A stretch of 59,463 nucleotides of DNA from Candidatus Micrarchaeota archaeon (GCA_038046805.1 JBBSVO010000011.1:1-59463); one strand, 5' to 3'. Shown: positions 1 through 20,144, counted from the first letter of the stretch. The notes: generated from the sequence alone by a model not told the origin. Numbers and translations are program-made.

Positions 1-23
1 TATCTGCTTTCTTTTGAGTCGTG

Positions 24-55
24 GAAGCCCACGGCTTCAGCCGTGGGTAGTTCAC
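24..55 (+). mobile_element. IS200/IS605-family right-end-like motif (subterminal hairpin ending TCAC)
   Basis: GAAGCCCACGGCTTCAGCCGTGGGTAGTTCAC: perfect hairpin CCCACGGC/GCCGTGGG followed by TTCAC, the usual form of tnpB-element right ends; element body would lie upstream of the window. Confidence 0.7.
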
Positions 56-144
56 AGGAAGAATTCTGATCCTTAAATTTGCGGATGTTGCACTCATTTA
101 CAAATAATTCGTTTAAATTTGTTCCGCAATGCAATACTTTTAAT

Positions 145-335
145 GCGGTTGTAGTCTAGCAAACCTTTTGGCTGCTGAAACCTTAGGGCAAAAGGTTTTC
201 GAAAACCCTTAAGCATACTAAGTCAAAGTGGTTTGGACAATGGTAGGATCTGAGCTTCCCAAGCTCATGACCCGGGTCCGAATTCCGTTTCGCGTTCAGA
301 GTTCTGCGTTTCGGATGGTTTTCCCGGCGACCGCA
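145..335 (+). tRNA. tRNA-Gly(CCC) with two non-canonical introns (D-loop ~161-238, T-loop ~280-321)
   Basis: Acceptor GCGGTTG/CGACCGC+A; D-stem GTCT/GGAT; anticodon arm TGAGC-TTCCCAA-GCTCA; T-stem CCGGG/CCCGG; exact intron junctions not resolved. Confidence 0.85.
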
Positions 336-459
336 CTCTGATTTTATCTGAGTGTTTACTCTTGCCCATCTTGCTAATCGCAAGAAACCCCTTTCCGTTG
401 AGGGAGGGTCTGAGGTAAGAGCTATTTAAGGCTTGACCTGAGGGGGGTTAGACAATTGT

Positions 460-1538
460 CTAGGTCGTACCAAACAGTTCGTTAAATCTCGCAACAACTC
501 TTTTCCTGAATTTGTAGGTATTTGCAAATTCGGCATATGCAAGCCAACCTTCCAAACTCAGTACGACTTCGGCTCGCGTCATCTCTCCTTTATCGTATTT
601 CTGCTTAAACTTGTTGAGACGTTTCCAGATCCTCCTTGCATTACTTTTCTTCAATAACCGATATTTTGAAAATATCCTGAAACCAAGAAATGTTATGCCT
701 CTTCTCAATGGTACAATCCTTGTTTTTTCAGGATGCAATTCAATCTTCAATTTCTCAATTAAAAATAAGCTTATTTCATGCTCCCATTTTTCTAGCACTC
801 TTTTATCTCTGTGCAGAATAACAAAGTCATCCACATAACGGATGTAATAGCTGGCGTTCAACTGGTGTTTCACAAAATAATCAAGCTCACTGAGATAAAA
901 ATTAGCGAAGAACTGAGAGGTTAAATTACCCAAAGGCATACCCCTACCATTAATTTCAGTCTTATGATTCTTCAAAATAGTTTCAATAAGCCATATTACC
1001 TTCTCGTCTTTGATCTTTCTTCGGATCAATTTCAGTAAAATTTCGTGGTCAACGGTTTCAAAATAATGACGTATATCGGCTTTCAAAACATAACCAAAAA
1101 CCCCCTCCCCCCCCCCCCCCCCCCCCCCGTTTCGACTTTTTGGTGGCTGGAGTAAGCACGTCTCAGAAATTTCTCGAACCTTTTTATTGCAGGGTGGGTT
1201 CCCTTACCTTTTCTGTTTGCAAACGAATCAAAAATGAAGCTACCGCCAAGGATGGGAGAAACAATATTGCACAGGGCATGATGTACAACCCTGTCCCTGA
1301 AATGAGAAGCACCTATTTTTCTTGTTTTGGGGTCTTTTACAATGAAAGTTGTTATCGGCCTTGGACGATAGGTAAATGTTTGAAGCTCGAATTGTAAATC
1401 AAGGAGATTTTGTTTGAGGTCTGCTTCAAATTCAATGACATACTCCTTCAGGGTCTTTCTTTTTCTTGCTTCAATAAAAGCGAGTTCTAGATTTTCGTAA
1501 GATGTGAGCTGTGGGTATAGATTATTGCAGCACTTCAT
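460..1538 (-). CDS. DGR reverse transcriptase, frameshifted at a G22 homopolymer (1107-1128)
   Basis: N-part KDPKTRKI..FRDRVVHHAL; C-part YVLKADIRHYF, GMPLGNLTSQ, YIRYVDDF; one extra G (or two fewer) joins the ORFs into ~359 aa; adjacent TR/VR. Confidence 0.93.
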
Positions 1539-1590
1539 AAAAATCACATAAAAGAAATAGAATAATACTAGAATGCAAGCCAGTAAGGTC

Positions 1591-1680
1591 ATTTCGAAAC
1601 GATTGGACGGCTGATTGTTGAGGTTGACGTTGCGACGGTTGTTGTCGTTGAAGTTGTTGTTGCCGCGCCTGAGAAGGCCG
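1591..1680 (-). repeat. DGR template repeat (TR), 90 bp
   Basis: AAC-rich; aligns to 2025-2108 with substitutions only at TR adenines plus one 6-nt indel. Confidence 0.95.
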
Positions 1681-1873
1681 CCAAAGGTAACCCGTCTACT
1701 AAGATGGTGCTCACGCACCTCACCGCAGTTTCAGGTTTCGCAAAAGAATAAACTACTAGCTGTCACTGCTGAATTTCATGTCTAGCTTGCCAGACGGCTA
1801 CTAGCACTGTAGACGAGTGTGTGGCCTAGGCTTGCACCTAGGAATTCAGAAAGTAAATAAAAGAAGTTAAAAA

Positions 1874-2683
1874 CTAGAGTAAATTCTGCGATCTGAGAAC
1901 TCTCAGGGCAGTTTGAATCTGTTCATCTGATCCGGTAATGACTACTTGCCCAGGTTGTGTGACTGCTACGAGTTTAGCAGCACCTGCCACAAGCGGCGCG
2001 TTGCCTTCGGCAGCTTCTCTTACCACCCCGAAACGACTGGACGGCTGACCGAAGAGGACGACGCCGCGACGGCCGTAGTCGCCGAAGAAGCCGCGCCAGA
2101 GAAGGCCGATTGTAGCAGAATCAGACACCCAGCTTTTGGTAGTTTCATCGCCAACTGCTTCAAACAGACCGCCATCCCTGCTTTTAATCTTGAATCTGCG
2201 TGTCTGACCGTTCAATTGTAAAAGCACTTCGTCAGCTTCGCCCATTTCTTCATCATTGCGTATTGGTTTTCCTGTTTTTGCATTGGATAGCATTAGCAGA
2301 GGTGTTTTACCATCTGAAGCAAATCCGTGATCAGACAATATCATAGTATCGATAAGAGCAGCTTCCTCCTTACCAGGTCTTACAATAACGGTTTTCATAC
2401 TACCTTCAAATTCACATTGAGATTCAACACTGGTTCCAAGTGGTTTGCCTTTGTTTCCGACTACAGCTGCAGTGCCAGTGTACAGAGGCCTGGCGCTTAG
2501 AATCTCGTCTGGAATGGGTTTGAATCTACCTTCCTCATCCTTTCCAAGAAATACTTCATTGTAGAATGGCGAATTTGGCATTATTTTTCTGCCTGCCACG
2601 TTGCCTCCATGAATTGCTTCCAGATAGGTTTGCCTCTTGGAGACTACTTCAACTCTTTGATTAGCGACTGCAACAGCACCCAT
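1874..2683 (-). CDS. DGR target protein (269 aa; VR resembles C-type-lectin-fold variable region)
   Basis: Contains VR GLLWRGFFGDYGRRGVVLFGQPSSRFGV; upstream GAGGTG RBS. Confidence 0.9.
   Translation of the reverse strand: MGAVAVANQRVEVVSKRQTYLEAIHGGNVAGRKIMPNSPFYNEVFLGKDEEGRFKPIPDEILSARPLYTGTAAVVGNKGKPLGTSVESQCEFEGSMKTVIVRPGKEEAALIDTMILSDHGFASDGKTPLLMLSNAKTGKPIRNDEEMGEADEVLLQLNGQTRRFKIKSRDGGLFEAVGDETTKSWVSDSATIGLLWRGFFGDYGRRGVVLFGQPSSRFGVVREAAEGNAPLVAGAAKLVAVTQPGQVVITGSDEQIQTALRVLRSQNLL
2025..2108 (-). repeat. DGR variable repeat (VR), 84 bp
   Basis: 20 of 24 aligned TR adenines substituted; 0 of 60 non-A positions differ. Confidence 0.95.
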
Positions 2684-2924
2684 AGATACACCTCATATTT
2701 TTGATTAATAGTGAGATATATTAGGATACATTAACCTTAAAAACCAATCTGTTACCACAACATTGAAGCTTCGAGGGAAGAATGTTCCAAAGGTCGTAAT
2801 TTAGGTCGTAAATTCTTTGAGAATAAACGTTCTGAGGCTTATATCTAACGAATTTGCATTATTAGCAAATTTATAATTATGGCTGGCACGGGACAATAGA
2901 GTTTGAGCTAGGCCGTTCTCAAAT

Positions 2925-4488
2925 CTATTCTACAACTTCAACAATAGCTTTTTGCTGTTTTTCGCTAGCTAGAACACGCACTTTCTTGTGATAAACAAAA
3001 ATAGCTCCGCCACGATCATCTTTGACGATATCAGGTTCGCCCAATTTTGTCCAGTCGATTTCACTCCCAATCATGTATATTTTTTTGGTGGTGTCCAACA
3101 ATCCCTTGAAATGGCCTTCCGGGGCATCGCGGTGATCGATCTTGCCTGAAATACCTGGAGTTTCGACAAGCACTCTAGCGTTGTTGATATCTGCATACTC
3201 TATCGGCCTTCTTTGGATGGATTTTGTAAGGTCTCCTACGTAAACAACTACATAATCTGTCAATCCTGCATTCAGCTTCCTTAGTAGTGGGATGTCCTTT
3301 TCGCTTCTGGCAAATAGGACGGTGTCGCTCTCCACCTCCCCACTGCCTCTTACATAGCCGCCTATGGTTATCGTCTTTTCGCTTTCGACAACTTCTTTTT
3401 CTTCATGCTGCTTCTTATCAGCATCAGCAATCTGAAGAATTGTAACACATACTTGGCCTTCTTTTTCTGCGATAGCATATTCCACGTACTGGGGCTTACC
3501 AGCTAGCCGTTCTAGTTGCTTCAATTTGGCAAACAACCAGGCGAGATTTTCATGCAACACCGCTTTCGGGACAATCTCGAGATGGTCTGTGTCATTTCTG
3601 GCAACATAAAGAAGGGTTGCATCGCTCGCATAAAATTTCATCTCCCTACCAACAAGGCCCGCACTAAGACGTTCGTATTCATCGTATTGGACAATATCCA
3701 GAGGGCGTTCATCGCTTTCCTTTATCTTAAGTCCCTCCCCTTTCACAGTGCCTGTTGGCAGGCCAGCGGCAATAAGGACATAGCCTTCGCCATCACTGCA
3801 CGACGTATATCCAAAGCCGCCGTATAATGGTCCGAATCTTACAATTCCGCTGTCGTGGTGCTTTTTGAAAGTCTGGCCAAAGACCGGTTCTATCATGACT
3901 GCTATACCACCAGGCAGACCCAGATCTTTCCTGAAAGCGATTGCAGAATCTGAGAACTCGCTTACCATAACCGCTTTTATCGCTTTCACTAAGCCATCTA
4001 GAGTCTTATCTTCGTTATTAATATTAAAGCAGAATTTGCTATCATAAATTCCTGTTCCCCGGCAGTCTCCATGAGCCGAAGACCTTACCGCTAACGGGAT
4101 TCCCTTGAAATTCCTATGAATTTGTTTTACGAGTTTTCGCAGCACTTTCATTTCAGCTTGTGCAAACTCCCCCCTCCCCAATTAACTGTTGTAATTCTTC
4201 CGAAGAAGCGCCCCGTACCAAAGCGGCGTTGATTCCGCATCTTTCCCTAAACGCTTCGAAGAAGCCCATTGCCAAAACTATTCTCGGATTGGCAACAAAA
4301 CCAGCTTGTTCGATGGCCCATGTTTTTTGCATAAGTTCTTCGGCCTTAGCGCCAATAGAACCACAACCTATAATCGTCCAGAATTTTTCATTAAGATTAG
4401 AAATCTGAGTTGTTCTGGCTCGTAATACATTCGCAAGGCTTTGTCTGACATTTGCTAGATTAACCTCTGGAGAATGCAACTGGGTCAT
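2925..4488 (-). pseudogene. PEP/pyruvate-binding (PEP synthase/PPDK N-terminal ATP-grasp-like) protein, frameshifted at G-rich tract ~4169-4179
   Basis: IGAKA in upstream ORF (4153-4488); LAVRSSA..GIYDS and PQYVEYAI..ILQ in downstream ORF (2925-4181); removing one G fuses them. Confidence 0.7.
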
Positions 4489-4631
4489 AGAATAATTAGT
4501 GTAGGGGAGAGTTTATAAAGTTACTTTTCGTGGTTTAGAATGTTCATTACGACGTGGATAACCTTGTTATTGGGCTGAAAAAGTCCGTGTACATGATTTC
4601 GCAATCTCATTCGTGTACATCGATTTTGCAT

Positions 4632-4950
4632 CCTTAAAAGTTGATGTGTTTCGCCTATTTTCGCTTTATAAAGAAGCACATCAAAAACACATTGACAGTG
4701 GCGTTCTGGAAGCCACAACACACAAGAAAAGGCGATTTGCTACACGTATTAGAGGTACAGTGAGAATATGAAGAGCTAAACATTCCTGCACAATGGTCTG
4801 TTTTTACCTTAAAACCATTGTGTTTCGCCTATTTCGAGTTTATAAAGAAACACAATGCTTTCACAATGGTATCGCCTTTCTGGAAGCCAGAACACACTGA
4901 AACAAGCCTTCTGGGCGTATATAGTGGTGTGTGAGCGAGAAAGAAGTAAA
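4632..4950. repeat. Imperfect tandem duplication, ~174 bp period, non-coding
   Basis: Shared blocks CCTTAAAA, TGTGTTTCGCCTATTT (4645, 4819), TTTATAAAGAA.CACA, TTCTGGAAGCCA.AACACAC. Confidence 0.85.
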
Positions 4951-5003
4951 AGAGGTAGGTATATAAATCTATACAATATATAAATGTATATAAGGGTGGT
5001 TAT

Positions 5004-5282
5004 ATGGTTTCAAGAGCTGTTCAAGAAGTGTTGCATTATCCTAGACTAGACACCGTGATAATGGTTGAAGAAGCGATAAAAAAAGCAAAAGAATACCCGA
5101 CAAAGGCAGAACTGCTTAGGCGCCTTCCAAAACAGGTCATGTACCAAACGCTCCTGCTTATCTTAGATTATCTTCAAAAGTCGAACAAGGTCTACGTTGA
5201 TCCAAAAGACGGCAGGGTAGTTTGGATATGGAATCCAAATGGCATCGAAAAGGCATTCAAAAGCAACCTGGTGATCAGATGA
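5004..5282 (+). CDS. Small winged-helix protein, probable antitoxin
   Basis: 92 aa, YPRLDTVIMVE..LPKQVMYQT; ATGA overlap with downstream RelE-like gene. Confidence 0.6.
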   Translation: MVSRAVQEVLHYPRLDTVIMVEEAIKKAKEYPTKAELLRRLPKQVMYQTLLLILDYLQKSNKVYVDPKDGRVVWIWNPNGIEKAFKSNLVIR

Positions 5283-5614
5283 GCAGGGAGATATTCGTTG
5301 GTTTTGCGGATAACAAAATCAAAGATGCGTATCAAGCCTTAAAAGAAGGTAAAGGCGCAGAACCGCATCTCTACGAGTTCCTCAGCAGGGCATTTGACGA
5401 CTTGAAGAAAGATCCATTTTGCGGCATAAAAATAGAGAAGAAATTGTGGCCCAAAGAATACATTAGAAAATACGAGGTAGATAATCTTTGGAAGTACGAT
5501 CTCCCGGACGGTTGGAGAATGATTTACACCATAAGAGCGAATCAGGTAACTATCCTCACAGTTGTCTTGGAATGGTTTGATCACAAGGAATATGAAAGGA
5601 GATTCGGCTATTAA
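5279..5614 (+). CDS. RelE/ParE-fold toxin-like protein
   Basis: LWKYDLPDGWRMIYTI..LEWFDHKEYERRFGY pattern; size and coupling to upstream gene. Confidence 0.7.
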   Translation: MSREIFVGFADNKIKDAYQALKEGKGAEPHLYEFLSRAFDDLKKDPFCGIKIEKKLWPKEYIRKYEVDNLWKYDLPDGWRMIYTIRANQVTILTVVLEWFDHKEYERRFGY

Positions 5615-5803
5615 TGCCTCATTCGATAAACTTGTTTTCTTTCAAATCTTGTTCGACGATATATAAAGGGATTGCGACTTTAATTGTTCTAAGCCTTAAT
5701 TCGCCTGGATTCAACTGGTAAAGAGGCTGTTTTTCCGTGCTTCTGACAATTGCAATTCCTAATTGTTCGCTAGTTCTGGCTATCCAATTCGCCTGAATCC
5801 GCT

Positions 5804-6571
5804 CTAAAATTCGGGCTGAATTATATATAACCTGCTTATTGTTTTTTTTATCTCATTACGAGTGATAACTTTTCCGTATGGCTTGTATGCTTCTCTAAGT
5901 TCCCTGTTTGTAACGAGGATGTAATAATCTGAATAGCCTTCTTTGGCACGTTTGAATTTATCCCTAAGGTCTTTCTTTCGATAGTGGGAACCTGTTTCAA
6001 CTTCAAAAGCGATATCATTTGCAACAATGTCTGGCCTGACGCTAGCGTACATGAGAGCATCATGACCGTACTTTTCAATCTCTGACTTCAAAATCCTGCA
6101 AAAATAATAATGGATGGAGCTTTGATTATCCGGGGATTTTATCAAAACTCTTGGCCCTTTGCCTGGACCGAAGGGGTTGGTGGTTATCTCAACATATCCA
6201 TTGTTTTTACACATGTTTATCTGGTCTTCGGTCAAATCCTTGGCATAGAAAAACCCATCATGAAGATTGATTTTTGCTGGTTTGGACGGTGGCAAGTCTG
6301 GCTTTTTTACTGGCACAACAGTGTTACCCAGCTTTGGCACTGGTAAATTCATTTCCCAGTCTATTCTCTTCAGGTCGTCTTTACTTAGTCGATAAACTGG
6401 CTGATGTTTTGGTAAATGATCACGAATTGTATCGACAATATTCAAAAATATTATTACAATCCCATATCCAATTACAAACGGTCCAATAATCAAAATTACT
6501 AAAGTTAAATCGATTATTAGCAACGCACCTTTTGCCAGGTACCCAAGCAAATCTTCAATTGCCATGCTCAA
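5804..6571 (-). CDS. Membrane-anchored protein with C-terminal PD-(D/E)XK-like motif
   Basis: N-terminal hydrophobic helices; RPDIV..IAFEVETG; overlaps integrase stop. Confidence 0.55.
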   Translation of the reverse strand: MSMAIEDLLGYLAKGALLIIDLTLVILIIGPFVIGYGIVIIFLNIVDTIRDHLPKHQPVYRLSKDDLKRIDWEMNLPVPKLGNTVVPVKKPDLPPSKPAKINLHDGFFYAKDLTEDQINMCKNNGYVEITTNPFGPGKGPRVLIKSPDNQSSIHYYFCRILKSEIEKYGHDALMYASVRPDIVANDIAFEVETGSHYRKKDLRDKFKRAKEGYSDYYILVTNRELREAYKPYGKVITRNEIKKTISRLYIIQPEF

Positions 6572-7779
6572 TCCGCCAGCAGTGTTTTATCCAATCCCTT
6601 CTCAACAATTTTCTTTAGCAGGAAATTCTTTACCTCATCGTCTTCTATGAGTTTGTTCATGAGATTATCGCTTTTCTGGCGTTCTTTTTCTATTATAGAA
6701 ATGAAAGACTCATCCAATGGCATACCGCACTTTGTGCAAAACTTGGAAATCGGAGAGTTGCTTTCTTTGCATCTTTGGCAGGTTTTGAGCTTCAGTTTTT
6801 CCTCCTGTGTGCTCTCAACCTGAGCCATTCCATGCATTTTCAGGAGCGCATTATCAACATCTCTTCCAGACAGATGGACGTAGGTAGCCGCCATATCCGA
6901 GCCTTGGACCCAGCCGAAATACTCTTTCATTTGGGCCTCTGTCAATTTTCCGGCCATCGCAGTTGCCCTGCTATGCCTGAACAAATGAGGGTATATCTTC
7001 TTCTGGATGCCTGTCCTCTTGGCAATCTTCTTTAGTGTTGCATAGATCGTGCCATGCCTCATGCATTTGTCGGTTTTCTTGTTGTTTTTGTATTGCAGCC
7101 ACAGGCTTGCTTCCGGGTCATTGGCACGGGGATGCGCATTAAGCCAGGAAGCCAGAATAGGAGACGAACTAATCACCCTTACTCTCCTATCGCCTGTTTT
7201 GCCAGTAACGCGCAGAACAGCTCCATATTGGTCAAAACTAACGTTTCTCATTTGCAACGATAGCAACTCGCCTACCCTGCAACCAGTCTCGTACAAAATC
7301 AAAATCAGTGTTTTATCCCTAGGGTTAATCGCAGCTTCAGCCATCCTAAGGACTTCGTCTTCGCTCAATAACTCTTCGGGCAGCTTATGCCTGTGATTTT
7401 TCATGCTCATTTTCATCCAGGTAACTTCAGGAGGGAAAAATTCGTCATTTCCCTTAAGCCATTTGTAGAACATCTTCAAAATGACTTTATAGTCGTATTT
7501 TGTATGTTCTGCGTATTTTTTCGTTTCCAATTCGCCGACCAGGGCGATCAGATCCTCTTTCGTCGCCTCCTTGAACGGCTTTTTGAGCCATTTTGCCAAG
7601 AATCTCAGGCAATAAACAGTTTTGGCAACCCTCCCGTAGGTTACTCCTTTTGCCAATTTTACCTTACAAAAATAGGTTATGGCTTCGACATTCTCCTTGC
7701 AAACCCCATCCTCAACCCTGAGTTTGGCTATTGCCTGCTCCAACCTTCGCGGATAGTCATATATGTCTATTTTACCCAT
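6568..7779 (-). CDS. Tyrosine recombinase/integrase with C-terminal Zn ribbon
   Basis: LYETGCRVGEL, GKTG, HLFRHS, FGW, YVHL; CQRC..CTKC. Confidence 0.95.
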   Translation of the reverse strand: MGKIDIYDYPRRLEQAIAKLRVEDGVCKENVEAITYFCKVKLAKGVTYGRVAKTVYCLRFLAKWLKKPFKEATKEDLIALVGELETKKYAEHTKYDYKVILKMFYKWLKGNDEFFPPEVTWMKMSMKNHRHKLPEELLSEDEVLRMAEAAINPRDKTLILILYETGCRVGELLSLQMRNVSFDQYGAVLRVTGKTGDRRVRVISSSPILASWLNAHPRANDPEASLWLQYKNNKKTDKCMRHGTIYATLKKIAKRTGIQKKIYPHLFRHSRATAMAGKLTEAQMKEYFGWVQGSDMAATYVHLSGRDVDNALLKMHGMAQVESTQEEKLKLKTCQRCKESNSPISKFCTKCGMPLDESFISIIEKERQKSDNLMNKLIEDDEVKNFLLKKIVEKGLDKTLLAD

Positions 7780-7980
7780 GTGCCTTACCTCGGCGGAAGG
7801 GGCATAATAGCCTTTATGCCGATATCAGCATATTTGGACAGGTCCGACTATTTTTTGTTTCCTGCCAATATTGGCACTACCGTATAAACTCAGCCAAATT
7901 AATCGCCCAAAGCGAACGATTAAATTCGCAAGCACTCAGATAACCTCTGAGTATTCGGCGACCGCATAATTTTTTTGTTT

Positions 7981-8436
7981 TCAGATTATCGCACTGTTTT
8001 CATTCACGACATTTTCATATGAAATTGTTGTTCTCGTTTCCGCAACTTCGCCCATCAGGCGGAGATACTTCACTACAAAACCATTGAGCTCTTCCATATC
8101 CTTGACGCATACCTTGAAGATAAGGTCAAACTCACCGGTTATCATCGAACCCTCTTCAACGACGCCGTGTTTCACGATTTTGTGCAGGATGTCTCCTTGG
8201 TTGGCCTTTTGGGCCGTTTTCACAAGAACATATGCAGTCATTTTTCTTCCGACCTTTGTTTTGTCTATTTTTATCGTGTATCCTGCAATTATGCCATTCT
8301 CTTTCATTCTTTTGATCCTATTATGGACTGTCGCAACCGGGATACCCGTATTCTTAGATATCTTCTGGATTGAAAGCTGGGAATTCTCCTTCAGCACGGC
8401 TAATAGCACTGTATCCTTCTCGTCAATTTGATGCAT
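7981..8436 (-). CDS. Lrp/AsnC family transcriptional regulator
   Basis: HTH ..TVHNRIKRM..GII.GY; ITGEFDL RAM domain. Confidence 0.92.
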   Translation of the reverse strand: MHQIDEKDTVLLAVLKENSQLSIQKISKNTGIPVATVHNRIKRMKENGIIAGYTIKIDKTKVGRKMTAYVLVKTAQKANQGDILHKIVKHGVVEEGSMITGEFDLIFKVCVKDMEELNGFVVKYLRLMGEVAETRTTISYENVVNENSAII

Positions 8437-8688
8437 GTTGAATACTTATTCCAAAAAACTATTTAAAGCTATCTATTTTTGCATGTTTATTCGCTAATTT
8501 TGGAATAACATTTATAAACAAGCTTTGTAGAGTTATTCTTTAAAAATAAACCTAGGAGGTGGTAAAAATGGAAAAAAAAAAGAAGAGAAGAAGTATCGGA
8601 ATTACTTGTTGAGCTGAAGGAGCTTGCGGAATTTGTATTAACTAATCCGGCAAAGCCAGGCACTGGAGGTTAACAATAAATTACTACA

Positions 8689-9807
8689 TTGGAGGTGATG
8701 AAAACGAAATTGAAATTTGAGAAAGCCCGGAAGATCTATCAAAAATTCCGTCACATTCCAGACCCATTACTCTCAAGGCTCGGAGCAGGAGCATTTACCG
8801 TTGCCAGGGTTGCACCACTTAAGGCACTTGCATTTGACGTTCCATGCATAACGGAAACCACGAAAATGTTTGAAAAAAAGCATCCTGCAGTTTCGAAGAT
8901 CGCGGAGCTTGGCACGTACTATACAGTCGGATTTACGTTTGTTGAATATGCCAACGAATTCGCAAGATACTTGGATGCGCAAAAAATCTCTCATCCATAC
9001 GAAAATGCATACACTGCGGTTTTTTCAGTTCCCATCGTGTTTAATGTCGCCCAAGCGATTTCAAAATCATTAAAGGGAACTGCAGGAAAGCTTTCAAAGA
9101 TTCCACGCAGGATTACTACTGCTGCCAGGAAAATATCGGAGAAACGAGGTTTCGTTGCATATTCTCTGATTGATTCTGTGTTTGATATCCCTATTACTTG
9201 GAGTTTCATCTGGTTGATAAACAAGGTAGCTGGAGATTCAGTAGAACAGATCAGTGGATTGCATGCAATGACTGCATTAGGAGTAGCTACAGCCTTTGCT
9301 ATTGTTGTTAGCTACGGGGGTCTTATTCTTGCCCAGACGCCTTTGGCAAGAAAAGATATTCCAAAAGGACATTTCACAGACTTCGTTCAGGGATTCAAAG
9401 AGACATTTTGCTCTTTTCATTTATGGAGAAATGTTAAATCTCTTCTCGCAGACATGGGAATCATTAAAACTGAATACAAAGAAAAACGGTTTGAGGTGCC
9501 TGTACCACTCACTTCAATGCAGCATGCAGGCCAGCTTGTCGCGCTTTTGGAATCTTATTTCATCTATGTTCAGGCAATACGTTTAGTCACTGGTCTTGCA
9601 ATCGGAGAATTTACTAACACACCACAAAAAGATTTTGTTGAAAGATACTACAGCATATACGCAGCCTGCGGTATTTCTACGGCAATGAATATTATAAGTT
9701 CATTTAACTCGGCGCATATTCGCCAGGTTTTAGATGATCGGAGTATTTATGAACAAACTGAGTCAACGTTTGATACTACGCACTCTTCGCCTTCTGGAAC
9801 AGCCTGA
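8689..9807 (+). CDS. Hypothetical multi-pass membrane protein
   Basis: 372 aa ORF, several hydrophobic segments, GGAGGTG RBS. Confidence 0.65.
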   Translation: MEVMKTKLKFEKARKIYQKFRHIPDPLLSRLGAGAFTVARVAPLKALAFDVPCITETTKMFEKKHPAVSKIAELGTYYTVGFTFVEYANEFARYLDAQKISHPYENAYTAVFSVPIVFNVAQAISKSLKGTAGKLSKIPRRITTAARKISEKRGFVAYSLIDSVFDIPITWSFIWLINKVAGDSVEQISGLHAMTALGVATAFAIVVSYGGLILAQTPLARKDIPKGHFTDFVQGFKETFCSFHLWRNVKSLLADMGIIKTEYKEKRFEVPVPLTSMQHAGQLVALLESYFIYVQAIRLVTGLAIGEFTNTPQKDFVERYYSIYAACGISTAMNIISSFNSAHIRQVLDDRSIYEQTESTFDTTHSSPSGTA

Positions 9808-19750: not shown

Positions 19751-19975
19751 AGAACACCACTCACGCTTACGACCGATAAATCGCCAATGCGATTTATGGT
19801 CCATTGTTCGATGCGTCGAACAATCGGAGCCAGAACTTGGCGTTTGTAGATATCCTGAAACCGATGCTTCGGTTTCAATCTATCAGCAACCTGTTGGTTG
19901 CCGATACCGACAAAATCGTGCTGTTATCAACGTTTTTACGTCGGTGGAGAACTGAGTCCAGGCAGGTGGTTTCTT
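19751..19975. other. Unidentified multi-hairpin non-coding element
   Basis: At least five local hairpins and a closing helix AGAA-ACCAC/GTGGT-TTCT. Confidence 0.5.
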
Positions 19976-20042
19976 CCCCCTGCATTTCACTTTTTGTTAT
20001 AGTCTTAAGGCTTATATCGTGGTTGTCGTAGGTTGGACAATT

Positions 20043-20144
20043 AGTCTGGAAGGTTGGCTCGCTTACGCCGAATTTGCCAACACCTGTAAATTCAGGAAAA
20101 GGATTGTTGCACTGTTTAACGAGTTGTTCGGAATAGAATCCTAG
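20043..20144 (+). pseudogene. Relic 3' end of a second DGR reverse transcriptase
   Basis: Translates SLEGWLAYAEFANTCKFRKRIVALFNELFGIES*, 27/30 aa identical to the C-terminus of the RT at 460-1538. Confidence 0.9.

Follow-up and report, generated by a model that had tools for sequence, protein, structure and literature searches.

A probable small tRNA-targeting integrative element with a DGR among its cargo in Candidatus Micrarchaeota

In a 59,463-nucleotide stretch of DNA from a Candidatus Micrarchaeota archaeon (the window, analysed at its full length), a DGR and a tyrosine integrase lie between two copies of an 11-mer. Do they belong to a single mobile element, and could elements of this kind carry DGRs from one archaeon to another? 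A preliminary description made from the sequence had proposed both. The host is a tiny groundwater archaeon of the Micrarchaeota (DPANN) with a genome of 1,200,822 bases (G000); among its named relatives, Candidatus Micrarchaeota MAGs come closest. We put at roughly 85% the probability that positions 336-7955 represent a small Micrarchaeota integrative element of the "cryptic" kind in its integrated state, with a DGR in its cargo slot.

Target gene, element ends and integrase

The direct repeat CGGCGACCGCA occupies positions 325-335 (attL core) and 7956-7966 (attR core), both on the plus strand, and occurs nowhere else in either the window or the entire genome. In the window, the 2 copies compared with 0.03 expected, and none of 100 shuffles reached 2. 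The left copy forms the 3' end of the integration target, a tRNA-Gly(CCC) gene with two introns (145-335, plus strand). In the raw DNA, ARAGORN called no tRNA gene in the window and Rfam none within 1-9000, because the gene is interrupted by introns in the D-loop (about 160-240) and the T-loop (about 282-320). With two segments removed in silico, ARAGORN called tRNA-Gly in 3,860 of 9,223 candidate splice forms, among them a cloverleaf of 71 nt whose anticodon is CCC and whose discriminator is the A at 335; thus, the 11-mer comprises the last T-stem bases, the 3' strand of the acceptor and the discriminator. In a congener (G001), the tRNA-Gly(CCC) exons were conserved and the introns had diverged. 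A copy of the tRNA 3' end therefore marks both boundaries, as in tRNA-targeting elements, and the 11-bp tRNA-Gly repeat of the preliminary description was confirmed as confined to the two ends.

The left end of the element (336-459, plus strand) consists of an 11-nt spacer, an inverted-repeat arm at 344-359 with a TCTGAGT motif and a conserved block, and the right end (7780-7955, plus strand) contains the opposite arm at 7928-7943 with an ACTCAGA motif. The arms matched at 14 of 16 positions, the top pair of the two 80-nt ends, and 14 matches were reached by none of 500 mononucleotide shuffles; the subterminal inverted repeats described earlier are real.

The right-end integrase (6568-7779, minus strand), which had been called intact, is a 403-amino-acid tyrosine integrase with a C-terminal Cys4 zinc ribbon (Pfam Phage_integrase, E 2.4e-19). 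It has the complete R, HxxR and Y catalytic set of tyrosine recombinases, and residues R168, H265, R268, W290 and Y300, together with C334, C337, C348 and C351, were invariant among the eight family members aligned. The ORF was full length in comparison with its relatives and uninterrupted despite integration. An SSV-type (suicidal) integrase was rejected, since the gene is unsplit and the core lies 177 nt beyond it. The pNOB8 type was rejected as well, since box II reads H-L-F-R (H265..R268) against the consensus R...YxxR...Y in the available part of PMC8371274.

Judging from how such recombinases work, the integrase would act on the core, whose sequence equals the final 11 bases of tRNA-Gly(CCC), and recombine it with the tRNA gene of the chromosome, and integration would keep the tRNA intact while depositing a second core copy at the far end. 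The conserved subterminal inverted repeats (TCTGAGT ... ACTCAGA), which keep a constant distance to the core, probably serve as binding sites of the integrase. The copy may still be able to excise; neither an excisionase nor a replication gene was recognisable in the element.

Contents of the cargo slot

The cargo slot would extend from the conserved left end to a conserved non-coding module adjoining the integrase. Here it holds a complete Avd-less DGR (target with VR, RT-16 RNA, TR and RT), and besides this a PPDK_N-like gene, a ParE-like pair and a membrane protein resembling a nuclease.

All parts of the DGR lie on the minus strand. The target gene (1874-2683) encodes 269 amino acids and contains the VR at 2024-2108 (residues about 192-220), a region homologous to the target genes of eight related DGRs. 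Its protein had no match in Pfam or PDB, and its fold model (pLDDT 37.5) was too low in confidence to use for a C-type-lectin-like fold. An RT-16 RNA motif (RF03019; 1682-1842; Rfam 80.8 bits, E 7.3e-12, with the gathering score at 50) lies directly 5' of the template repeat (TR; 1590-1680) in the transcript. In the alignment of TR and VR, all 20 of the 20 substitutions fell at TR adenines (13 A>G and 7 A>T), with one 6-nt indel. In this copy, the target has at some earlier time been diversified by the DGR. Neither an Avd gene nor any other ORF lies between target and RT, where the RT-16 RNA is located instead; absence of Avd is usual among DPANN DGRs.

The RT is divided between two frames, a C-terminal part of 208 amino acids with RT motifs 2-7 (460-1086; Pfam RVT_1, E 5.7e-14) and an N-terminal part (1083-1538) that matched positions 25-122 of an NCBIfam group II RT model (E 7.5e-12) and, by tblastn, its relatives. 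The C-terminal part was 83-86% identical to the RTs of three relatives (G005, G001 and G120), and over 1-205 the identity to RTs adjoining TR/VR pairs in DPANN genomes was 45-86%. Thus, the target-TR-RT arrangement proposed for the left end was borne out in its adenine-specific TR/VR pair and has to be amended with regard to the RT, which is not a single open frame.

The two RT parts differ in frame (offset 2) at a simple-sequence tract, a C5TC22 run at 1101-1128 (G22AG5 on the sense strand, here the minus strand). Since the RT is out of frame at this poly-G tract, the DGR is now probably off or leaky. A tract was present at the equivalent RT position in 9 of 9 relatives retrieved, and at this position the contigs of sequencing runs broke or measured 6 nt less. 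In a census of 76 RT loci, 12 contained a tract and 11 of these were out of frame; 63 of the 64 loci without one were in frame. Among 17 non-redundant relatives, frame offsets of 0, 1 and 2 occurred 4, 9 and 4 times, leaving 13 of the 17 out of frame. The tract thus has the properties of a contingency locus, being an in-ORF repeat of variable length that places relatives in all frames, and it may act as a switch of the RT.

A PPDK_N-type ATP-grasp gene (2925-4488, minus strand; Pfam PPDK_N, E 8.7e-12) consists of two ORFs (4153-4488 and 2925-4181) with a frameshift at a G4AG6 run; a paralogue on contig C4 of the same genome is a single open frame, and an Atlas structure of the PPDK_N-like protein gave TM values of 0.80-0.82 to PPDK_N clusters. 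The non-coding module is present in two tandem copies (4636-4960, plus strand), with a palindrome around a TATA-like box and a second palindrome, as shown by alignment and pair counts, and was common to the elements of G005, G128, G015 and contig C6 of G000. Two small genes (5004-5614, plus strand) encode a 92-amino-acid protein with no family match and, downstream with a 4-nt overlap, a 111-amino-acid ParE/RelE-like protein. The pair was conserved at C6:233410-234014 and in G120, and the ParE_toxin match was below the cut-off (18.9 versus 23 bits, E 0.0024), so that the TA pair of the preliminary description becomes a candidate toxin-antitoxin pair. The gene at 5804-6571 (minus strand) encodes a protein that is anchored in the membrane, carries a PD-(D/E)xK-like domain at its C-terminus (alignment invariants H154, D181 and E192) and is often found beside this integrase. 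Its model (pLDDT 81) was best matched in Foldseek by an XPF/Hef nuclease domain (E about 1e-2), and in G102 the PD-(D/E)xK-like domain forms part of a fusion with a VirB4/TraC-like ATPase.

Pfam, PHROGs, NCBIfam and PADLOC gave no hit to a capsid, replication or conjugation family in the element, in agreement with the preliminary description. The earlier picture of a minimal cassette with hypermutation as its main cargo holds for the size, 7.6 kb, and less well for the contents, as the element carries other cargo besides the DGR.

Related elements, empty sites and linkage to DGRs

Two DGR-less sister elements were present at other tRNAs of G000. On contig C6, where the tRNA ends at 164702, the direct repeat TGCTCCCTGCAT occurs at 164692 and 168588 and the integrase is 63% identical to the one described here; on C4, the direct repeat CGTCGGGGGCTT occurs at 77792 and 84053 and the integrase is 47% identical. 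A 4.3-kb element of G005, with the direct repeat TTCTCCCTGCA at positions 1481 and 5775 of its locus (L027), contains solely RT, TR, VR-target and integrase. G033 carries a 6.6-kb element with its direct repeat at a tRNA-Leu(cag) end, G013 has a 14-nt direct repeat at the end of a minus-strand tRNA, and in G082 a DGR element lies between copies of the core CCCTCCCTGCA. Overall, the direct repeats equalled tRNA ends in at least five elements. Those of G102 (12 nt) and G039 (10 nt) lie away from a recognised tRNA and may be due to chance, with about 0.6 chance 10-mers estimated per comparison. The tRNA is flipped at two of the three occupied sites.

The left and right ends of four elements from three genomes (the present element and those of G000-C6, G005 and G033) could be aligned, with invariant TCTG.GT and C.CAGA motifs. 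In G005 this left end immediately adjoins the RT stop codon, and in the DGR-less C6 element it is followed by different cargo. Homology between the C6 and G005 elements spans the ends and the integrase and excludes the cargo. Their integrases were 94% identical (377/402), compared with 79% for FtsZ and 75% for Spt5 between the same two genomes. The RT of the congener G001 was only 84% identical to that of the present element and has a different genomic context.

The congener G001, with 98% identical FtsZ, had no match to the integrase, and all three G000 elements were absent from it. Its tRNA-Gly(CCC) is directly followed by another gene without an insert, with flanks rearranged relative to G000. 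The site of the C4 sister element was empty and clean, joined through a 24-nt overlap of contig ends, and the flanks of the C6 element were 0.34 kb apart in G001 versus 5.9 kb in G000. Comparison with a relative lacking the insert, as suggested in the preliminary description, gave a clear presence/absence difference for the C4 element and, with the flanks rearranged, a less clear one for the present copy. The flank here is not that of a plain insertion: homology to G001 ends at the Spt5 stop codon, and tRNA and element are found at a distance of 9.4 kb, in an orientation opposite to that of the ancestral Spt5-tRNA synteny. Only 144 nt of the contig precede the tRNA, and they begin in a 55-nt repeat that is present in multiple copies. 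Of the checks proposed in the preliminary description, that for direct evidence of excision was the only one that did not come out in its favour: contigs of four runs, in which rare variants are dropped, contained neither an empty tRNA site nor a circular junction, those covering the ends being all of the integrated form, and none of 77 metagenomic integrase loci was a contig with terminal overlap.

Among 176 genomes of the order, the integrase family was found within 5 kb of 7 of 35 near-full-length RT loci; the remaining 28, some on short contigs, had no integrase nearby. Conversely, 4 of the 77 metagenomic integrase loci carried such an RT within 10 kb. At all 7 integrase-linked loci examined, TR/VR mismatches were restricted to T (sense-strand A). 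The recurrent linkage, together with an integrase identity above that of housekeeping proteins, supports the earlier suggestion of a vehicle for DGR spread. The slots of sister elements, which hold other genes or a DGR alone, and the related elements in other genera indicate that DGR cassettes are carried from host to host by this integrase family, and some route of transfer from cell to cell would have to be presumed.

Alternative explanations and known systems

It is possible, if doubtful, that the element integrated by the same route and is now a fixed and decaying island that no longer excises and whose DGR is dead. The frameshifts in the RT and the PPDK_N-like gene could reflect decay, the flank is rearranged, the four runs contained the integrated form alone, and contigs covering the VR from three runs (X1, X6 and X7) had no alternative letters in it. 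However, rare excision would be invisible to contig data, the integrase is of full length and lacks none of its catalytic or zinc-ribbon residues, and neither the two ends nor the two core copies have any defect. The RT break, moreover, falls at a tract that puts most of the non-redundant relatives out of frame as well, in both non-zero offsets, which fits a reversible state better than decay.

We consider it very unlikely that the element is a provirus or a satellite of a virus, with structural genes that have diverged beyond recognition. Several ORFs had no family match, and small archaeal integrase elements can be viruses according to the available text of PMC6563490, but the integrase was the sole PHROG match, a viral contig collection contained no relative of it, and sizes of 4.3-7.6 kb, with one member reduced to integrase and DGR, leave no space for a virion module. 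A shade less probable still is a resident chromosomal DGR beside which an integrase element landed. The RT loci without such an integrase nearby would suit this explanation, as would the RT of G001, which adjoins an ordinary gene and lacks an element end beside it. Against it, the two core copies enclose the cassette, which has the tRNA core and the left end (336-459) on one side and the integrase on the other, and the left end is shared by G005, where it abuts the RT, and by the C6 element with other cargo. Chance repeats next to a cellular XerA dimer-resolution enzyme are close to negligible as an explanation: archaeal XerA was the best NCBIfam match, but this assignment was rejected at 113 bits versus an equivalog cut-off of 220, and the integrase occurs in three diverged copies in G000, in up to 10 in relatives and in none in the congener, with repeats that match tRNA ends.

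The reading that we prefer, an integrative element with a DGR in its slot, can be extended further, and on this whole extension we are evenly divided. Minimal (4-8 kb) tyrosine-integrase elements of Micrarchaeota with a defined cargo slot would shuttle complete, self-contained DGR cassettes between genera, with a slippery-tract switch built into the RT. The complement of the acceptor stem, at the 5' end of the tRNA, may in addition serve the integrase as an inverted core, which, if so, would account for the flipped tRNAs. The 4.3-kb member with nothing but integrase and DGR would then be the smallest self-integrating hypermutation module known.

Among known systems, the nearest are the cryptic integrated elements and type II (non-suicidal, lambda-like) integrative elements of archaea, as described in the available parts of PMC6563490 and PMC8371274. 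Like these, the element is small, keeps its integrase intact after integration, uses a tRNA 3' end as att core and has no recognisable replication, virion or conjugation genes. It differs in the HxxR box, compared with YxxR in the pNOB8 type, in the C-terminal Cys4 zinc ribbon of the integrase and in the DGR as cargo; the term "reverse transcriptase" is absent from the accessible text of the Thaumarchaeota survey, and neither DPANN nor Micrarchaeota is mentioned in that of the 2021 integrase review. The RT tract resembles simple-sequence contingency loci (slipped-strand phase variation), in which an in-ORF homopolymer or dinucleotide tract differs in length among relatives and sets the frame. 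Here, the gene that would be switched is a DGR reverse transcriptase; our literature search yielded no publication describing a tract of this kind in the RT of a DGR. A DGR is also carried as cargo by an integrase-driven island in the chromosome of Legionella pneumophila, a much larger and conjugation-capable bacterial island, whereas the elements described here are of 4.3-7.6 kb and have no transfer genes. DGRs of DPANN and Nanoarchaeota are reportedly also the subject of Paul et al. in 2017. The DGRs of DPANN and Nanoarchaeota in Paul et al. 2015 (PMC4372165) share the Avd-less target-TR-RT order and adenine-specific mutagenesis, as far as the available text goes, and the C-terminal RT part shared 60% identity with a contig from Nanoarchaeota SCGC AAA011-G17 (L061). 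That text speculates about "mobile RT/TR elements" with integrase and tRNA unmentioned, whereas the cassette described here lies within an integrase element bounded by tRNA-end repeats, and the RT of its sub-clade bears a simple-sequence tract.

Element ends, tRNA target and uninterrupted sites in a congener

The window is the entire 59,463-base contig C11 of the host genome (G000; 1.2 Mb, 16 contigs, estimated 86% complete), and the named relatives closest to it are Candidatus Micrarchaeota MAGs; thus, the host had rightly been called DPANN-like. The 11-bp repeat CGGCGACCGCA lies at 325-335 and 7956-7966 and is absent from the rest of the window (0.03 occurrences expected). Both copies in the genome are those at the element ends, with none elsewhere. 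The inverted repeat just inside the ends (344-359 and 7928-7943) matches at 14 of 16 positions, a level that no shuffle of the two 80-nt ends reached in 500 trials. ARAGORN reported 0 tRNA genes on the window, and Rfam found no tRNA at 1-9000; the tRNA-Gly proposed for the left end is a tRNA-Gly(CCC) gene at 145-335 with two interruptions. After in silico excision of two segments, ARAGORN called tRNA-Gly in 3,860 of 9,223 candidate splice forms, and one spliced form of 145-335 is a 71-nt cloverleaf with base 335 as its discriminator. The 11-mer is therefore the end of the T stem, the acceptor 3' strand and the discriminator of tRNA-Gly(CCC). The exons are identical to those of the same gene in a congeneric genome (G001), with diverged introns, and the D-loop intron also occurs in a tRNA-Gly(TCC) paralogue on contig C3 of the host.

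Overall, the repeat, the inverted repeat, the DGR and the integrase were all confirmed, and the interpretation as an integrative element was supported, with the strongest part of the mobile-element case coming from comparative evidence. The host carries two sister elements that lack a DGR. On contig C6, a tRNA with its end at 164702 precedes the same left end (336-459 in the window), a PPDK_N-like gene and a 63%-identical integrase, with the 12-mer TGCTCCCTGCAT as direct repeat at 164692 and 168588. On contig C4, the tRNA has an intron and ends at 77803; after it come a 47%-identical integrase and relatives of orf255 (a membrane-anchored, nuclease-like protein) and of the PPDK_N gene, and the direct repeat is CGTCGGGGGCTT at 77792 and 84053. 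Both ends could be aligned among the window and C6 elements and those of two other genomes of the order (G005 and G033), reading core, about 11 nt and TCTG.GT on the left and C.CAGA, about 17 nt and core on the right.

The congener, whose FtsZ is 98% identical to that of the host, lacked all three elements, and its assembly (84% complete) contained no match to the window integrase family at E 1e-30. At the C4 site, two of its contigs share a 24-nt terminal overlap and, once joined, give an uninterrupted site that reads tRNA, about 105 nt and the right-flank gene. The C6-site flanks are 0.34 kb apart in the congener versus 5.9 kb in the host, and its tRNA-Gly(CCC) is directly followed, with no insert, by the next gene, which we take from its translation, judged by eye, to be serine hydroxymethyltransferase-like. 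A circular junction or empty site within the population did not emerge: no excision or circle joint is listed in the contigs of the sequencing runs, and every contig covering either end has the integrated form. One low-depth joint in run X6 (1780>2013, 26-nt side) is not interpretable. Exact searches of JGI metagenome contigs with the attR core and flank gave 0 matches, terminal overlap indicating a circular contig was found at 0 of 77 metagenomic integrase loci, and the integrase profile recovered 0 relatives from viral contigs.

The DGR, its interrupted reverse transcriptase and the other cargo

The target-TR-RT arrangement at the left end was as described, and all of it is on the minus strand. 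The target gene (1874-2683, VR at 2024-2108) is followed by an RT-16 RNA motif (1682-1842, 80.8 bits), the TR (1590-1680) and the RT, which is divided into an N-terminal part (1083-1538) and a C-terminal part (460-1086). All 20 of the 20 TR/VR substitutions fall at TR adenines, with one additional 6-nt indel. The VR appears static in the contigs of runs X1, X6 and X7 that cover it, where no alternative letters were seen at the consensus level. Little could be learned about the target itself: a structure from a 9-sequence alignment was unusable (pLDDT 37.5), the Atlas model was also poor (0.39), the nearest clusters were unnamed archaeal proteins, and PDB sequence and profile searches gave nothing significant. 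Targets of the window and its relatives share a conserved tail after the VR (1874-2020 in the window), ...I.G(T/S).EQ(L/I)..A..(L/V)L, which is faintly like a secretin N-domain motif at a nonsignificant E of 0.65.

The window RT is out of frame at a simple-sequence tract (1101-1128) between motifs 1 and 2, and a G, C or GA tract occupies the same spot in 9 of 9 fetched relatives. The tracts are of the types G7-G22, C9-C12 or (GA)8-12, and the loci bearing one at this spot are L027-L035, L047, L048, L053, L057, L060, L086 and L095. Among 76 RT loci in which both parts were found (4 further loci missing one part were left out), 12 carried a tract and 11 of these were out of frame, compared with 1 of the 64 loci without a tract, the other 63 being in frame. 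Among 17 non-redundant tract-bearing genes, offsets 0, 1 and 2 were represented by 4, 9 and 4 genes, so that 13 were out of frame and both non-zero offsets occurred. The occurrence of all three offsets argues against a single fixed programmed frameshift. X1 contigs break at the tract, and X6 contigs cross it at a length 6 nt shorter. The tract in the window is not a lone artefact, and it is a candidate on/off or leaky-expression switch.

The claim of an intact tyrosine integrase at the right end held; the protein has 403 amino acids and a Cys4 zinc ribbon. No element protein matched a capsid, replication or conjugation family, as had been stated, and PHROGs and PADLOC returned no match for any cargo protein. 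The suggested TA pair is a small gene pair between the PPDK_N-type and orf255 genes, with a sub-threshold ParE match. The PPDK_N-type ATP-grasp gene is split by a frameshift at a G4AG6 run (4153-4181); its paralogue on C4 is one open frame, and that on C6 is also split near the same place. PDB sequence searches with the PPDK_N-like, ParE-like and orf255 proteins gave nothing useful. The C-terminal domain of the membrane-anchored orf255 (5804-6571, minus strand) has PD-(D/E)xK-like invariant residues, and its predicted structure (pLDDT 81) weakly matches XPF/Hef-type nuclease domains. Its relatives were taken from the fetched loci, as a word-based homologue search yielded 8 proteins only. In one relative (genome G102, contig C38, locus L029, 3101-6160), a 1019-aa protein fuses the nuclease-like domain to a VirB4/TraC-like ATPase (TraG P-loop, E 2e-27), and its gene directly adjoins the DGR RT. 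Because of this fusion, sequence comparison hints at a DNA-transfer role for orf255-type domains.

A conserved non-coding module is present in two tandem copies at 4636-4960, with further copies in relatives (L027 4040-4392, L040 3270-3435, L037 9965-10115 and L036 12085-12235). Its first palindrome, approximately TGTGTTTCG..CGAAACACA, surrounds a TATA-like box and shows compensatory changes in the outer pairs, and a second palindrome, GTTCTGG..CCAGAAC, follows. The module is a candidate regulated promoter, origin or small RNA.

Linkage of the integrase family to DGRs and probable exchange between backbones

Across 176 genomes of the order, the integrase family was present at E 1e-30 in 66, often in multiple copies, and an RT in 42. 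The expected linkage was found: integrase homologues lay within 5 kb at 7 of the 35 near-full-length RT loci from these genomes, with the host left out (G120, G005, G102, G013, G033, G039 and G082:C31). TR/VR mismatches were strand-consistent and adenine-only at all 7, save one or two other changes. In G005, two copies of TTCTCCCTGCA at a tRNA-Leu enclose an element of 4,283 bp that contains only an RT, a TR, a 194-aa target and the integrase. The G033 element is 6.6 kb long and sits at tRNA-Leu(cag), a 14-nt repeat in G013 abuts a minus-strand tRNA beside the integrase, and the G082 element is flanked by copies of CCCTCCCTGCA. The best repeats in G102 and G039 (12 and 10 nt) were not at a recognised tRNA and were left uncounted. 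Only 3 of the 80 best RT loci (one genome per species) had the integrase, all of them in Micrarchaeota, and the integrase at a fourth was 24% identical; metagenomic integrase loci had an RT in 4 of 77 cases and an orf255 relative in 17 of 77. On these counts, the integrase family carries a DGR only occasionally, and such DGRs occur in several contexts, of which the family is one.

Locus L035 (G006:C3, 5268-7900) holds a DGR of about 2.5 kb (target, TR and RT) with no integrase, beside a minus-strand tRNA end and flanked by a 19-nt direct repeat and tRNA-3'-end-like cores; possibly, this locus derives from the same element family by loss of the integrase. The window itself has a scar of another element at 19950-20135, with a right-end-like motif AGAACTGAGTCC, a core TTCCCCCTGCATTT and 31 residues remaining from an RT C terminus, 84-87% identical to the window RT.

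Between the DGR-less element on C6 and the DGR-only one in G005, integrase identity is 94% (377/402); the two hosts share 79% identity in FtsZ and 75% in Spt5. The DNA of these two elements is 84% alike over the integrase and right end and 76% alike at the left end, and between the ends one has a DGR and the other a PPDK_N-like gene. The RTs of G005 and G120 share 83-86% identity with the window RT, and the integrases there just 54-63% with the window integrase; the nearest integrases (72-80%; G015, G128 and G134) have no RT nearby. In the congener, the RT is just 84% identical and abuts an ordinary gene, with no element end. These identity patterns of integrases, RTs and host proteins fit horizontal movement of the element and cassette exchange between backbones and do not fit vertical descent.

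Inverted tRNAs and relation to known systems

tRNA-Gly comes after Spt5, on the same strand, in the congener and in four further genera. Homology between the window and the congener (contig C32, locus L004) ends at the Spt5 stop codon, and the inverted block (1-9775) comprises the tRNA, the element, an Lrp gene and a gene for a 372-aa membrane protein. The C6-site tRNA also lies on the opposite strand compared with the congener (contig C58, locus L122), and its acceptor stem differs on both strands, with identical D and T arms. Thus, at 2 of the 3 element-bearing sites, the tRNA is inverted compared with the conserved genes that flank it in the sister genome, and both cases belong to the subfamily whose left end adjoins the tRNA. 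We considered that tRNA-Gly(CCC) may have been carried in by the element; the tRNA body matches the sister genome instead of showing the divergence of the element. An IS-mediated inversion behind the broken Spt5-tRNA synteny was unsupported, as no repeat copy was found at the Spt5 side. The complement of the att core forms an inverted copy at the tRNA 5' end, and it is thus conceivable, judging from sequence, that integrase-mediated inversion via the acceptor-stem complement would explain the flipped tRNAs.

A 55-nt hairpin repeat (1-55), identical to an internal site on C3 (134364-134418), marks the end of the contig, 144 nt upstream of the tRNA. This repeat has several other continuations in the sequencing runs and is therefore multi-copy and breaks the assembly. 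Pseudo-tRNA-like remnants of about 50 nt (around 84-135 in the window and 164488-164543 on C6) lie about 10-35 nt upstream of two element-bearing tRNAs, each resembling a 5' acceptor half joined to a T arm and 3' acceptor half.

DGRs abound in DPANN and CPR organisms, and their spread has largely been inferred from RT trees. Here, a physical vehicle can be seen: an integrase element of very small size that has a cargo slot. Members of its family from different genera either carry or lack a DGR, at integrase identities well above those of housekeeping proteins. The value is mainly comparative, lying in the cargo slot, the 4.3-kb integrase-plus-DGR element and the cross-genus transfer. An integrase, two short ends and a tRNA site are the components with which DGR transfer could be tested in uncultured archaea, and the compact element could serve as a natural template for a portable module of targeted mutagenesis.

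Roux et al. (PMC8144416) state the hypothesis that mobile elements initially carried DGRs, and DGRs are known on bacterial islands, plasmids and phages (PMC5758913). The literature passages retrieved by full-text search contained no description of a DGR in an archaeal tyrosine-integrase element or of a repeat tract inside the RT of a DGR; two kinds of source outside that search, Paul et al. 2017 and the supplements of all papers, may bear on both points. The element family, the zinc-ribbon integrase and the conserved non-coding module are absent from the accessible sections of the archaeal integrase review. The window integrase differs from the pNOB8 type by motif (its own being HxxR) and is neither of the SSV type nor XerA. 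By comparison with PMC6563490 and PMC8371274, the element fits among cryptic integrated elements and those with type II archaeal integrases, and its DGR is of the Avd-less kind found in DPANN archaea (PMC4372165).
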